From NCBI GenBank assembly GCA_963834385.1, contig CAWIBO010000002.1, forward strand, positions 224,001 to 288,000: DNA of 64,000 nt. Direction: 5' to 3'. Of this stretch, positions 15,001 through 21,000 are shown piece by piece; position 1 is the first letter of the stretch; each line of letters starts with the position of its first letter. The stretch is from an uncultured Verrucomicrobiae bacterium. GTDB lineage: Bacteria; Verrucomicrobiota; Verrucomicrobiia; Chthoniobacterales; UBA10450. Position numbers: made by a program.

Positions 15001-18000
15001 GTCGTTCAACGTCAAATATCGCCTGATGGACGCGTTCACCGCGCTCCCGTTCCTCGTCAACGTGGTCGTCTGCACGCTCGTCGGGCTGCTCTGGGCGCGC
15101 GTGGTCTGGATCATCCGGAGCGATCGCAACGATCTGCGGCACTGGAGCGCGGCGGTCGCTGGAGTACTGGCCTGGATCCTGGTGGGCCGCCTCTTCTTCG
15201 AGTTCGAGAGCGGCAAGATCCTCGGCTGTCTTATGGCGGGACTGTTTCTCGTCGGCGCCTTTGAGATGTTCCGCCGCGTCGGGCTGCCCCTGAGCTGGTC
15301 CGCTCTGGTTGGCGTTCTCGTCCTGTTCGCGACTTTTCACTTTGTCGTGAACGGCTTTGCTTTGAGCCACGTCGATTTCCGGTTTACCGCGAACAAGATC
15401 ATCCCCTTCGAGCGGGAACTTTGGCGCGCGGTGCAGCAGATCGCCTGGACTGTGGTGAAGTATCTTTTCATTCTGCTCCCGGTTCTCACCGTTTATTTCA
15501 TCGCGCCGCCGCGCCTGGCCCTGGCGGAACAACTTCTGCAATTCGGTTGGTGGCGTCAGCTTCTCGTGATCGTGAGCGCGCTGGGTCTTTCCTTCTTTGA
15601 TCCGCGCGGGGTTAACGAACTCGCGAGCGAGGAGATCTACTTCTGGACGTTCCTCAACGGCGTCCTCTTTGCCTTTTGCGTGCTCCGGCTCGCGGTGGGC
15701 CGGAAACGAATAGGGCCGCAGCCCGGTCTGCGGGAGGAACCAGCCGCGGTCCCGCTGGTCGCGGGCTAACCCGGGGGCCAGGCCAGGGCGCGTTTCCCCA
15801 GCACGTGGACGTGCAGGTGCGGCACGCTCTCGCCCGCATCCGGACCGTTGTTGATCACGACCCGGTAGCCGCCCGGCATGAGGTTGAGCTTGTCCGCCAC
15901 CTCACGCGCCGCCAGCAGAAGTTTCCCGAGAAGGGGACCGTCGCTTTCCTTCGCCTCGGCCAGGCGCGGGAGAACGCGTTTCGGCACCACCAGCACATGG
16001 ACGGGCGCCTGCGGGTTGACGTCGTGAAAAGCGAGGACGTCGTCGGTCTCGAGCACGATTTCCGCCGGGATCTCGCGCGCCGCGATCTTCTCAAAAATGG
16101 TCATGGTAGACGATAGCGTCGCGGCAGTTAACGCAACGAGCAATTGAGTTCCGCCAGGCCTTCCGTAACGGCCAGCCGTTCCCGGATAAAAACAATGATC
16201 TCGTCGCGCAATCCTTCGCAGGCGCGCGTCCAGACCTTGACCCCGCGCAGGTGCTTCACGCAGGGAACGAGGTCGAAAAGCTGCACGCGGGTGGTGCCGG
16301 TGCCGGCGAGGGCGGAGAGGCGGCGCTCCAGGCCCTCAAAGAAAGCCAGCTCGTAACCGTCTCCCGCTTCGGCCGCGAGCTCGAAAAGCGAGATGGTCAG
16401 GGGCGGCGGGGCCGGCTGGAAGAAGGGAACGATTTCCTTGTAACCGATCACCTTGAGGACGTAGCGGACCGTCTGGGAGAGCTGTTTGAACGCGACCACG
16501 TTCTCGTCGTTTCGCAGGCGCAGGTAAAAGGCGATGCTTTCCGTGACGTGATCGGTCAGCCACCAGCTCGGGTAACCGGCCTCGTCCGCGGCACGGGTGA
16601 TGGCCGCGCGCAGCCAGTTGCGATCGAACTCGAAGAGGAGCCCGGAGTCGCAGCGCAGATACGGGAACTCTTCCTTAAACGCGACCATGAGCGGGTTGTT
16701 CGGCGGCGGCGGCGGCCGGCTGTTGATCCGGGGCAGGGGCGGCGGGGAAGAGTTCGCGCTGGAGCGAACTGTTTTTCACGCGCCGCCCGAGTTGCTGAAT
16801 GGCGTCGGCGAATTCGCCCGCATCCTCGAAGCGGCGATGCACCGAGGCGTAACGGAGATAGGCCACCTCGTCGAGGTCGCGCAATTTCTCCAGCACCTTG
16901 GTGCCGATGAGCGATGAGGGCACTTCGCGGCCGGTCACCTCGAGCTCGTGCACGATCTCGTCCACCGCGTGCTCGAGGGTGACCAGGCTGATGGAACGTT
17001 TCTCGCAGGCCTTGGCCAGGCTGTTCACGAGTTTGCGCCGGTCAAACTGTTCATGGGTGCGGTCGCGTTTGACCACCCGCAGGTCGGTCCGCTCGATTTG
17101 TTCGTAGGTGGTGAAGCGGAAAGAGCATTGCAGACAGACCCGGCGCCGCCGGATATTGGCGCCGTCGCGCGACTGACGTGAATCAATCACCTTGTCGTCG
17201 CGAAAACCGCACTTGGGGCAACGCATAGTGTTGCGAACCTTCGTAACACACAATCCCTTGTGGCGTCAACGGGTCATGACGGCTTTTCTCTGGCGACGCA
17301 GCTTGGGCCGATTTTCTGGACCAGGGCAGTTTTGCCAGCCCGGCAGTCCCCGGAGGGCACCTTCTACCGCGGCGGGAACTCGAACTCGGCTTTGTCCTTC
17401 TTCTGCGAGAGGATGAGGTGGGCGGCGAATTTGTTGCCGCGCTTGGAGACGAAGTCTTCGATCAAGGGTGATTTGCCGTCGTTGAGCAGCTCTTTCACCT
17501 CCTCGGGGCTGATCTCGTGCTGGCAAAGGTTTTTGCTCAGCTTGAAGACCTGGCGGTTGTCCTGGTCGGGCTTGCGCACGTAATAGGCGTCGCCCAGCTC
17601 GACCAGCTCGCCGCCGTGCACCTTGCTTTCCCCGATCACTTCCGCCTGGGAAAGATCGACCTTGGCCCGCGCCTTGCGCTCGATCGGTTTGCCATCCTTC
17701 CCGGTCTTCGGGGCGCGCGGCGGGAATTCCCAGCGGATGCGCGCATCTTCCCTCACCAGGAACGCGTCGAAAGGGCGGCCCTTCTTGGAAGTGAATCCCT
17801 TGAGCAGCTCCGTCTTGCCCTGCTCGATGAGCTGAATGGCCTGCTCGGGCGTGATCTCCTTTTTGCACATGAGGCGCGGGAGGCGGAAGGCCTGTTTCCA
17901 TTCGCCGTTCTCCTTCTCGCGCAAAACATAGTTCGGGCCCACCTGGCAAAGCTCCGCGCCGGTGGCGGGATCGGTCCAGAACGGCTCGACCGTGCCGAGA

Positions 18001-21000
18001 TCGACCTTGTCGCCGAAATCATACTCGACCTTGAACTTGCCGGTCTCCTCGTCCTTGACCAGGCGAAGGCTGGCGGCAAAAGAGGCGCGGGTCTTGGCCG
18101 AGATGAAACCGTCGAGCGGACCGACCACGCGTTTCTCGACCAGCTCACGGATCTCGTTTTCCTCCATGCGCCGGCCGCCGATGACCTTGTAGATCATGAA
18201 CTCGCCATCCTGCGACCGGTAACCGCGCAGCGTTTCCCGCAGCGGTTTGCCGTCGGTGGGCGAGGGGATGTCGGTCTCGCGCGCGACCGAGTCGTCTTCC
18301 TCGAACGCCTTGACGCGTTCCACGATGCCCCTGGTTTCCTCGACGATCTCGGCCATGAATTTTTCCCGCGAAAATTTGCCCTGTTCCATCTGGCGGAGCT
18401 GATGTTCCCATTCGCCGGTCATGGCCGGGCTGGTGATATCGGTCGCCTTCACCGCCTCAAGGAACTGGATGACCTGTTCCGCCTTGGAAGTGGGGACCAG
18501 CTCGCGCTGCTGGCGGTCGAGGTAGTTCTGGTAAATGAGACCGTCGATCGTTTCCGCGCGGGTGGCGGGTGTGCCGAGCCCGCGTTCCTTCATGGCCTCG
18601 GCCAGTTCCTCGTCCACGACCAGTTTCCCGGCCGTTTCCATGGCGGAAAGAAGCGTGGCCTCGGTGTAACGCGGCGGCGGTTTGGTCGCTTCGCCGTGCA
18701 GGGTGGCTTCGAGCGTCCGCGCTTTCCCGTCGTCCCCGGCGGTCAATGCCGGCAGTGTCTTGCTCGCGTCATCGTCCACCAGGCCGCGGCCATAGACTTC
18801 GAGCCAGCCGGGCGCGGTCAGCACCTTGCCCTCCGTCTTGAAGCGATGTTCGCCCACGGCGCTGATCCGGGTGGTGACGTCGAACTCCGCCATCGGATAG
18901 AAAATCGCGACGAACCGGCGCGCGATCATGTCGTAAATCTTGGCCTCGGCTTCATCGAGGTTCTTGCTCTCCGACGCGGTCGGGATGATGGCGAAGTGGT
19001 CGCTCGACCTGCGCGTTATTGAAGATGCGCTTGTTCGGCCGGACCCAGTTTTGCTCGAGCACGCGCCGGGCAAACTGGTCGAGCGGGGCGGCAAGGTTGC
19101 CGAGCGCCTCTTTCACCACGGGGAGATAATCCTCCGGGAGCGCCCGCGAATCGGTGCGCGGATAGGTGATCATCTTGTGCTTCTCGTAGAGCGCCTGCGC
19201 GATCTGCAGGGTGCGCTTGGCCGGGAAACCGAAGCGGCTGTTGGCCTCGCGCTGGAGAGTGGTGAGATCGTAAAGACGGGGGGCGATCTGCGTGCTGGCC
19301 TTTTTCTCCTCCGTGACGGTGGCGACCGGATGCCCGTCGCAGGCGGCGAGAACGGCCTCGGCGGCCGCCTTTTCCCAAAGCCGGTCGGCGCGATCGTGCT
19401 CGTCGCCCTCGTTCCTCTTGAAATCCGGGACGCTGGTAGGCGCCCTCGTATTGGCCCTGGGCGATCTCGAACTTCGCCGTGACCCGCCAGTAGTCGCGCG
19501 GCTGGAAATTCCGGATCTCGAGTTCCCGGGCGTAGACGATGGCGAGCGTGGGGGTCTGGACGCGGCCGACCGAGGCGACGTTGCGGGCGCGGGAACCGAA
19601 CATCCGCTTGGTCAGGGCGCGGGTGCCGTTGATACCGATGAGCCAGTCGGCCTCGCTGCGGGAGCGGGCGGCGTCAGACAACCCCTGCATCTCCTCGTCG
19701 TCGCGCAGATGGGCGAAGCCGTCGCGGATGGCCGCGGGCGTCATTGACTGGAGCCAGAGCCGTTTGACCGGGTGTTTGCTCTTCGCGAGCCGGCAAAGGT
19801 TTTTGAAGATCAGTTCGCCTTCGCGGCCGGCGTCGCAGGCGTTGATGACCGCTGAGACATCCTTGCGGGCGAGCAGTTTTTTCAGGTGAGCGAACTTGTC
19901 CTTCGCCTTCTCGGCTGGTTTCAGCTCGAACTTCTCGGGGATGATGGGAAGCGTCTCCAGGCGCCAGAAGCCGTACTTCTTCTTGTCGATATCCTCCGGC
20001 ATGAGCAGCTCGACGACGTGGCCGACGGCGGACGAGATGACGTATTCGTCGCTTTCGTAGTGGTCGCCTTTCTTCGGGATTTTGCCGAGGGCGCGGGCGA
20101 TATCGGCGGCCACGCTGGGTTTCTCAGCGATGACGAGGGTTTTGGACATGGGAGGGAAGCGAAGTAGACCTCGCCGCGCCGGTTTGCAAGTTTTTCGCAG
20201 CCGGCGCCGGTCGTCTTCAGCCGAGTTTCACGAAATACTTGCCCGGGAGTTGTTTCACCAGCCGTTTCAACTCGAGGCGGAGCAAAATCGAGGAAACCGC
20301 GCCGCTGGGTTGCCCCGACCGGGCGGCAATTTCGTCGATCGAAGTCTCGGTCGCCTCGATGGCGTGGTAGACGGCTTTCTCCTCGTCAGTGAGCTCCGGA
20401 AGGGGTCGCGCTTTCGCCTCCGGGGCCGGCTGGGTCCCGGGGATGAGCAGATCCAGATCATCGAGAAGATCGGAGGCGTCCATGACCAGTTTGGCTCCCT
20501 GCTGGATCAGGCGATTCGACCCTTGGGCGCTGGGGGCGTTGATATGGCCGGGCACGGCGTAGACGGCGCGGCCCTGCTCGATGGCCTGCGAAGCGGTGAT
20601 GAGCGCTCCGCTGTTGAGCCCGGCTTCGACCACGAGAAGGCCATGGCTCCACCCGCTGATGATCCGGTTGCGCATGGGAAAGGTCTGGCGATCCGGCTCG
20701 ACTGCCATGGAAAACTCCGAGACCACCGCGCCCTGGCCGTCGCGAATCTTTTCGGCGAGCGCGGCATTCTCCGGCGGATAAAGCTGGAGAAGCCCTGAGC
20801 CGATGACGGCGATGGTACGGCCTTTGGCAGCGAGGGCGCCCTGGTGCGCGGCGGTGTCGATCCCGCGGGCGAGGCCGCTGATCACGGTGAGGCCGGCGTA
20901 GGCGAGCTGGTAGGAAAGTTTCTTGGCCGATTCGAGGCCGTAATGCGTGGTTCGGCGGGAACCGATCACGGCGATGGCATGCTGGTCGCGCTCGGTCAGT

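Follow-up and report, generated by a model that had tools for sequence, protein, structure and literature searches.

What opposes gyrase in a bacterium that encodes no topoisomerase I (TopA) and carries a topoisomerase III (Topo III) behind dprA? The question is posed by a window of 64,000 nucleotides from the genome of an uncultured verrucomicrobial soil bacterium (hereafter G000). [quoted passage not shown] Contrary to this universal statement, the genomes analysed here show large lineages without Topo I. Our literature search, which covered titles and the beginnings of abstracts, found no report of TopA absence or of Topo III as a TopA replacement; clostridial topB has been called essential in a paper that leaves topA unmentioned (PMC3673618).

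G000 contains a single PF01131 locus, a Topo III of the PRK08173 type, which bears out the earlier note in its claim that the genome lacks TopA and has one type IA enzyme, encoded directly behind dprA. The gene (PRK08173/NF006032 type) occupies positions 17364..20149 of the minus strand, with about 927 codons distributed over three frames. On the same strand, dprA (20217..21317) ends 67 bp upstream, preceded by ssb (21357..21821) and rpsF, encoding ribosomal protein S6 (21840..22169), while nrdR (16675..17253) forms the downstream flank. The order ssb–dprA–topoisomerase recurs in all 11 family loci examined, with nrdR downstream of the topoisomerase in seven of them; a scan for promoters and terminators gave results at chance level.

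That the gene is split by frameshifts, as had been noted, was confirmed by DNA alignment with five relatives, which places one extra base near 19427 (frameshift at 19425..19429) and another near 19002, give or take a few bases (19002..19010). The nearest proteins (75–84% identity, mostly 921–954 aa) are unbroken, and G000 gyrA has a similar break; among 12 G000 genes compared with family proteins, the topoisomerase alone is split. Both single-base insertions are probably assembly errors, a reading based on the relatives and the gyrA break because the contigs of the one DNA run (0.10 share) give no useful span over either frameshift. No RNA run containing G000 is listed.

The assignment to Topo III is borne out by profiles, residues and fold. 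The two open reading frame pieces match NF006032 with E values of 1.5e-110 and 2e-154, and TIGR01051 more weakly (8.5e-23 and 2.7e-27). Scored separately, the pieces fall below the curated Topo III cut-offs; G020 and G090, relatives with an intact gene, exceed every one of these (TIGR01056, NF005829 and NF006032), reaching 1255 and 1548 bits, respectively, with NF006032 (cut-off 1058). Neither the TopA profile (TIGR01051; 203 bits for G020, cut-off 456) nor the Topo I residue pattern fits. Two residues are described as marks of Topo III, a Lys right after the first Toprim Glu and a Pro right after the catalytic Tyr (PMC10969213). G000 has both, in the motifs AEKPS (20114..20128, minus strand, as are all motifs below) and TYPRTDS (19147..19167), and all 58 scored sequences of the class have the pair, whereas none of 16 TopAs does. 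The Toprim acidic motif reads CDAGREGE (19814..19837), the second Asp of DxD being Gly, with a Glu following; this D-A-G-R-E form is found in 56 of the 58 class copies and in 10 of 10 betaproteobacterial ones. The AlphaFold model of an intact relative (P0272; pLDDT 89) has a toroidal four-domain core that matches E. coli Topo III in Foldseek at E 1.8e-51, and the best PDB match is E. coli Topo III both by sequence (E 3e-91 against 2e-31) and by fold.

It could still be argued that a divergent TopA was mislabelled by the profiles or that topA lies in unassembled DNA, G000 being 89.6% complete and most of the genomes MAGs. Given the residue marks, the PDB matches and the presence of just one type IA locus in single-contig genomes, Bordetella holmesii included, such an artefact is scarcely credible, and we regard it as largely refuted.

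Where E. coli Topo III has its decatenation loop, the enzyme carries an insertion (18582..18632, located by alignment via relative G020) that aligns gap-free to the E. coli loop and is missing from all 16 TopAs. A positive charge of this loop, as seen in the E. coli enzyme, is given as a Topo III feature (PMC8191776), and in this respect the class enzyme departs from expectation, with a net charge of −3 in G000 and −3.3 on average in the class, compared to +2 in E. coli. The acidic loop was considered, and rejected, as a mark peculiar to TopA-replacing enzymes, as the whole wider branch shares it.

The C-terminal tail comprises 315 residues (17367..18311), made up of three roughly 100-residue units that each combine a small beta domain with a PF13342 repeat, in accordance with the Toprim_Crpt repeats reported previously. 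PF13342 is the only repeat type in G000, neither of the TopA tail domains (PF01396 zinc ribbons and PF13368 repeats) occurring there, and the tail of this allele type is without CxxC. The tail is at least 200 residues long in all 59 copies from which it was extracted. Its structure is predicted with a pLDDT of 91. For the tail alone, Foldseek returned only propeller-like partial matches (TM <0.2), and VIA-align found no match at Z ≥5 (best Z 4.8), with a weak superposition of tail residues 5–42 on E. coli TopA 589–636 (Z 4.2, 36 residues); a sequence-profile comparison with the E. coli TopA tail detected no likeness (probability 9.6%). The Foldseek and VIA-align results support neither a new fold nor kinship.

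Across the class, the presence of Topo III and that of TopA are mutually exclusive. Of 121 genomes, Topo III occurs in 104 that lack TopA and TopA in 16 that lack Topo III, while one has neither and none has both, counts that are not independent because the sampled genomes are related to one another (and mostly MAGs). The 16 TopA genomes belong to families f9 (6 of 6), f17 (9 of 15) and f42 (1 of 1), which contradicts the earlier view that the swap is fixed across class Verrucomicrobiia; in the family of G000, TopA was found in none of 81 genomes. The view that Topo III is the only type IA enzyme stands for G000 and fails for G073 and G079, which encode a second, distant Topo III-like gene. 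As had been stated, the other classes of the phylum keep TopA, which scores above cut-off in 84 of 87 genomes; two of the remaining three have TopAs split at contig ends, and the third has the same Topo III. The swap is not peculiar to the class: besides that genome, the same Topo III type is present in two Caldisericota MAGs and in Burkholderiales, where 54 of 121 genomes have Topo III only, 66 TopA only, one both and none neither. Named Bordetella, Burkholderia, Ralstonia, Achromobacter, Nitrosomonas and Thauera genomes are among those without Topo I.

The dprA-linked position, which holds for G000, turned out to be far from general. The topoisomerase lies in the dprA slot in 15 of the 16 TopA genomes and in only 38 of the 99 Topo III genomes with a dprA gene; the link is absent from the other 61 (contig ends explain some of these) and was lost in most families. 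In Burkholderiales, dprA falls inside the 1.5 kb flank at 20 of 25 Topo III loci and at 8 of 12 TopA loci. In the order of G118, TopA or a Topo III–TopA hybrid stands behind dprA at all 30 loci. One TopA-keeping order carries the hybrid in the dprA slot in 11 of 36 genomes, mixed with TopA inside genera, and the flanks of G129 (TopA) and G130 (hybrid), from one genus, are collinear. The three f17 hybrids scanned combine Toprim and the Topo III core with one PF13342 and three PF01396 domains, and hybrids, at 1031 bits, score below the NF006032 cut-off. Past a sharp border, the tail of G022 shares 92–100% DNA identity with the topA end of its congener G041. The Topo III copy of G000 is a foreign allele, probably exchanged in place; the adjacent dprA is native to the family (80–82% identity to relatives in the family, irrespective of the Topo III allele these carry). 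The transfer is not visible in composition, because the GC3 of the Topo III gene (0.84–0.87) is near that of its neighbours (0.81).

These observations are consistent with a history in which TopA behind dprA would be the ancestral state of the phylum, replaced early by Topo III in most of the class. Ongoing in-place allele exchange, through recombination between dprA and the downstream sequence, may have given rise to the hybrid in f17 and to the foreign allele of G000, and in roughly half of the Burkholderiales sampled, TopA would have given way to a verrucomicrobial-type copy. In our trees, all from quick LG+G4 or FastTree searches, the betaproteobacterial Topo III nests among the verrucomicrobial ones (borderline test, p 0.038), and RpoB rejects the hybrid carriers as a single clade (p 1e-8). 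A separate origin of every hybrid is also unsupported, with hybrid tails clustering (0.93, one long TopA row drawn in). Were the history reversed, with the same function, Topo III would be ancestral in the class, f9, f17, f42 and f46 would have regained TopA in the dprA slot, and the hybrids would be remnants of that return. The FastTree RpoB tree does place the TopA keepers inside the class, and TopA subtypes within f17 likewise do not track family. However, the base of that tree is without support, a tree that unites all Topo III-only orders in a single clade has the better fit, by 16 log-likelihood units (p 0.755), the keepers' TopA clusters with the other TopAs of the phylum (support 97, with an outgroup that is proteobacterial only), and TopA is preceded by dprA in 5 of 20 other-class loci. 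We thus consider the reversed order of events unlikely and prefer an early replacement of TopA by Topo III.

Does the replacement extend to function? An alternative explanation is that Topo III is merely a decatenase, TopA having been lost and relaxation being left to some other enzyme such as Topo IV or Topo IB. G000 encodes one Topo IB, all three members of its family in the class sample have the enzyme, and Topo IV at an elevated level stands in for both type IA enzymes of B. subtilis (PMC6547408). Topo IB is as patchy as had been described (16 of 121 class genomes). G000 has a single GyrA-family gene, with a GyrA box; of the 104 Topo III genomes, 43 gave a second type IIA match. In these genomes and in the 15 of the 104 with Topo IB, G000 among them, the job may be shared. 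Yet 52 of the 104 have one type IIA match, no Topo IB and no TopA, and because of these Topo III most likely opposes gyrase. The 52 include the single-contig genomes G030, G055, G068 and G080, with one PF01131 locus each, and Topo VI A had no match in five of five genomes tested, these four included. A decatenase-only role, moreover, leaves unexplained why a genome with Topo III lacks TopA and vice versa, and why the two alternate in one slot inside genera; we judge it improbable.

Another possibility is that gyrase is weak or supercoiling low in these cells, so that ordinary Topo III relaxation is enough and the tail is incidental. E. coli Topo III does relax supercoils induced by transcription, with lower efficiency than Topo I (PMC7140829), and plasmid copies have long tails too. 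Against this, the GyrA box is intact in four of four class genomes checked and in Bordetella holmesii (G030, G055 and G068 have gyrase with the box), a long tail is kept in every copy from which it was extracted, and the hybrids retain TopA ribbons. This explanation, too, has little to recommend it.

The most plausible reading, and in our judgement a probable one on comparative grounds, is that a long-tailed Topo III subfamily of the PRK08173 type took over from TopA as housekeeping enzyme of type IA. The earlier proposal that Topo III sits in TopA's place and probably balances gyrase therefore survives, through the mutual exclusion in two distant lineages, the common slot, the hybrids and the 52 genomes lacking any other relaxing enzyme searched for; class-wide fixation does not. 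Using the usual tyrosine strand passage, Topo III would remove the surplus negative supercoils from gyrase and transcription, and would also decatenate. Loss of topA is partly suppressed by extra topB, E. coli topB rescues topA loss only partly in B. subtilis (PMC6547408), and a short tail is a proposed cause of the slow relaxation by E. coli Topo III (PMC8191776). The repeat tail of 200–330 residues may supply the substrate-binding role of the TopA zinc ribbons, which is wanting in the E. coli enzyme. Possession of the tail is by itself no sign of a housekeeping role, because similar enzymes (40–47% identity) are found on plasmids.

A broader proposal, which we advance tentatively and hold at somewhat less than even chances, is that PRK08173-type enzymes constitute a functional class of their own, the third among bacterial type IA topoisomerases, in which a repeat tail would turn a Topo III core into a transcription-coupled relaxase. 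This class would have spread from Verrucomicrobia to Betaproteobacteria by in-place topA replacement, the dprA-linked slot serving as a site of exchange at which entire alleles and Topo III–Topo I hybrids might still pass between orders. Whether core or tail decides between relaxase and decatenase in type IA enzymes is testable with natural material, as congeners carry either TopA or the hybrid at one locus. The absence of Topo I also bears on the supercoiling balance in cells with gyrase and Topo III alone, and on what target these bacteria would offer to a type IA inhibitor.

Among known systems, the NCBIfam models NF006032 (PRK08173) and NF011313 (PRK14724), both named 'DNA topoisomerase III', have the same core and PF13342 tail as the class enzyme; NF006032 carries this name only, and our literature search found no paper that casts it as sole type IA enzyme or TopA replacement. 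E. coli Topo III (TopB; PDB 1D6M, 1I7D, 2O59) resembles the class enzyme at 32% identity and a TM of 0.84 by target length, sharing the Lys after the Toprim Glu, the Pro after the catalytic Tyr and the loop insertion. It differs in its short tail, its positive loop and its DPD (rather than DAG) Toprim motif, and it is a dispensable second enzyme, whereas the class enzyme is the sole one. TopA (TIGR01051; E. coli 4RUL, 9GDA) is alike in gene slot, single-copy housekeeping pattern and long repeat tail, but its core is only about 24% identical; the f17 hybrids bear its PF01396 ribbons, and the PF13368 repeat of actinobacterial TopA differs from PF13342. In archaea, the 'topA'-encoded Topo III of Sulfolobus solfataricus (PDB 6K8N) is likewise the cell's classical type IA enzyme (PMC10969213), but it is distant (E 3.5e-32) and described as a decatenase, and gyrase had no match in the Sulfolobus control, whereas the class bacteria have gyrase to balance. 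The plasmid Topo III enzymes of Burkholderiales and Xanthomonas match at 40–47% identity along most of the length, including the tail; these are accessory and mobile, and the chromosomal betaproteobacterial copies stand nearer to the verrucomicrobial ones (54–59%).

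The sole type IA topoisomerase gene of the genome under study (G000) occupies window 20149→17364 (minus strand) in three frames, within the order rpsF-ssb-dprA-topoisomerase-nrdR. DNA alignment with five relatives reveals one extra base near 19427 and another near 19002, and the nearest proteins (75-84% identity, several of them named Chthoniobacterales MAG proteins) are mostly 921-954 aa long. The gyrA of G000 (G000:C5:549749-552278) is likewise broken by a frameshift, near codon 760, a sign of indel errors in this assembly; the frame breaks of the topoisomerase gene are therefore likely assembly errors as well. 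Elsewhere in the window, a 186-aa ORF between nrdR and a HIT gene (16128-16688, minus strand) had no match in Pfam or NCBIfam, and tRNA-Ser(GCT) (34353-34442, minus strand) is the only tRNA.

The G000 enzyme is a Topo III. The Topo III profile NF006032 (PRK08173) scores highest for both gene pieces, the TopA profile TIGR01051 being weak, and a PDB sequence search places E. coli Topo III on top (E 3e-91, against 2e-31 for TopA); it is also the best PDB match to the predicted fold of the intact relative P0272 (pLDDT 89). Both residue marks of Topo III, a Lys following the first Toprim Glu and a Pro following the catalytic Tyr (PMC10969213), occur in G000 and in 58 of the 58 class sequences scored, and in none of 16 TopAs. 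The decatenation-loop insertion is present but acidic, and in place of the Toprim DxD stands DAG, two features common to the wider branch. Three PF13342 repeats lie in the tail, whose 315 residues are predicted to fold into three beta-rich units resembling one another (pLDDT 91); solved structures offered no clear counterpart. As the earlier note had claimed, G000 (89.6% complete) was found to have no TopA and one Topo III locus behind dprA, which is also its only PF01131 (core domain) locus.

Among 121 Verrucomicrobiia genomes (at least 90% complete, with G000 added), TIGR01051 exceeded its cut-off in 16, while NF006032 matched 104 others at E 3e-141 or better (64 above its cut-off) and gave only cross-matches in the 16; the sample therefore comprises 104 genomes with Topo III only, 16 with TopA only and none with both. 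The swap is thus not fixed across the class, contrary to what had been proposed. One 290-contig MAG (G072, 96% complete) matched neither profile, probably owing to an assembly gap, and two genomes (G073 and G079) carry a second, distant Topo III-like gene. No TopA was found in the 81 genomes of G000's own family, whereas 84 of 87 genomes from other classes of the phylum possess it and two more have it split at contig ends; in G142, a 100% complete genome from another class, the sole type IA locus (G142:C18:12144-13888) belongs to this Topo III family too. The proposed dprA slot holds for G000, with a gap of 67 bp, but not class-wide: the Topo III gene has dprA no more than 1.5 kb upstream of it in 38 of 99 genomes (five Topo III genomes without a dprA match being left out), and the TopA gene in 15 of 16.

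The Topo III copy of G000 is, on sequence comparison, evidently foreign. RpoB of G000 and its family member G020 is 94% identical and DprA of G000 shares 80-82% with that of family members, yet the Topo III cores of G000 and G020 share only 45-61%, as against 60-87% in every 100-residue window with G097 from family f22, which RpoB places in another deep branch and which we infer to be Opitutaceae-like. Grouping the enzyme with those of its own order was rejected (p 4e-7), and its type appears to come from f22. The C-terminal half of the G000 protein, from which the identity classes derive, is matched in 77 of 80 family genomes: 18 at 77-85%, 13 at 62-65%, 4 full-length matches at 42-44%, 40 partial ones at 41-47%, and 2 fragmentary or broken (one unpublished genome is counted in each of the classes of 18, 13 and 2, namely G364, G360 and G371, respectively). 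These classes are mixed within five genera (g3, g130, g143, g153 and g155), and the upstream ssb-dprA is kept at all 11 family loci examined. A separate case is G085 (f20), which falls with f22/f15/f41/f29 by RpoB but with f8/f35 by Topo III (support 97-99), a placement that marks another transfer between orders.

Exchange extends to TopA itself in the order of G118 (36 genomes, at least 85% complete), where every genome has a single full-length type IA gene (G121 carries a fragment besides), TopA in 25 and one with a Topo III core in 11. TopA-type zinc ribbons form the end of all 11 such genes: nine have three, and two are seen in G094 and G128, whose sequence ends early; the three hybrids scanned against Pfam consist of Toprim, core, one PF13342 and three PF01396. 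All 30 loci returned follow dprA. TopA and hybrid both occur within genera g29 and g79, and between G129 (TopA) and G130 (hybrid), collinear on both sides, dprA and tail match and the core does not; between the G022 hybrid tail and G041 topA, identity rises from 30-75% to 92-100% at about base 3900. In core trees the cores of the hybrids, those of f32 and an AV36-like allele cluster together, whereas RpoB pairs hybrid with TopA carriers (G022-G041 100, G130-G118 100, G050-G124 97) and rejects the hybrid carriers as a single clade (p 1e-8). One fusion followed by repeated exchange at the locus, in one direction or the other, is the simplest reading. At rpoB, G022:C34 and G041:C23 have 2672-codon open frames, which suggests an rpoB-rpoC fusion in g29.

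A GTDB search returned many chromosomal betaproteobacterial copies, 54-59% identical among the best 80 of at least 789 matches, and TopA exceeded its cut-off in none of ten genomes with listed copies (eight betaproteobacterial, two Caldisericota). The complete Bordetella holmesii genome has one type IA locus. Of 121 Burkholderiales genomes, 67 exceeded the cut-off for TopA and 55 for NF006032, none lacking both and only G287 having both; dprA flanks 20 of 25 Topo III and 8 of 12 TopA loci. The TopA-like gene of G287 (G287:C3:96921-98591, 488 bits, just above cut-off) is long-branched and possibly mobile. The two Caldisericota MAGs (G238 and G436), in which a PRK08173-type Topo III is present at 40-43% identity and no TopA reached the cut-off, represent a possible third such lineage. 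The swap is real, wider than first reported and less uniform.

Verrucomicrobial copies enclose the betaproteobacterial ones in core trees (support 96-98), although forcing the former together was only narrowly rejected (p 0.038). TopA of the class genomes that keep it forms a clade within the TopAs of the phylum (99 and 97, with a proteobacterial outgroup only). A FastTree RpoB tree draws these keepers inside the class, its base being unsupported, and an RpoB tree uniting all Topo III-only orders was not rejected and fitted better than the free search. We favour a history in which dprA-topA would be ancestral, Topo III would have replaced TopA early, and alleles would have moved at the locus afterwards; natural transformation via the neighbouring dprA as the driver of this traffic is a guess.

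As to other relaxing enzymes, a second PF00521 match occurs in 43 of the 104 Topo III genomes (a few may be fragments), one match in 58 and none in 3; Topo IB occurs in 15, and 52 combine one type IIA match with no Topo IB. The single-contig genomes G030, G055, G068 and G080 each show a single type IA locus and gave no Topo VI A match, and in the first three the GyrA box of gyrase is intact. In such cells, Topo III is the only candidate found to oppose gyrase. Topo IB (G000:C3:43808-44506; also in three of three family members and three of four f22 genomes) could share this work in G000.

Supercoils induced by transcription can be relaxed by E. coli Topo III, but less efficiently (PMC7140829); additional topB makes up in part for the loss of topA (PMC6547408), and the long pauses of E. 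coli Topo III have been put down, as one proposal, to its short tail (PMC8191776). For the PRK08173-type enzyme, identity, exclusivity with respect to TopA, slot and hybrids are directly observed; its long tail would quite probably make it an adequate relaxase, with decatenation as a further activity where Topo IV is missing.

Our search of the literature, which covered neither most subscription papers, supplements nor Forterre et al. 2007, yielded no report of bacteria without TopA. Topo I is stated to be present in all bacteria (PMC7140829, PMC8191776, PMC10969213), and PMC2647321 describes an omega-like Topo IA in all bacterial genomes, with Topo III as a second enzyme in a few phyla; the part of PMC9369019 covered here deals with PF01396 and PF13368, and PF13342, Verrucomicrobia and Burkholderia go unmentioned there. 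The Topo III family itself is known and annotated in NCBI, so that the swap can be read from public annotations; what is new is its probable, unreported role as a replacement of TopA, together with its natural hybrids.
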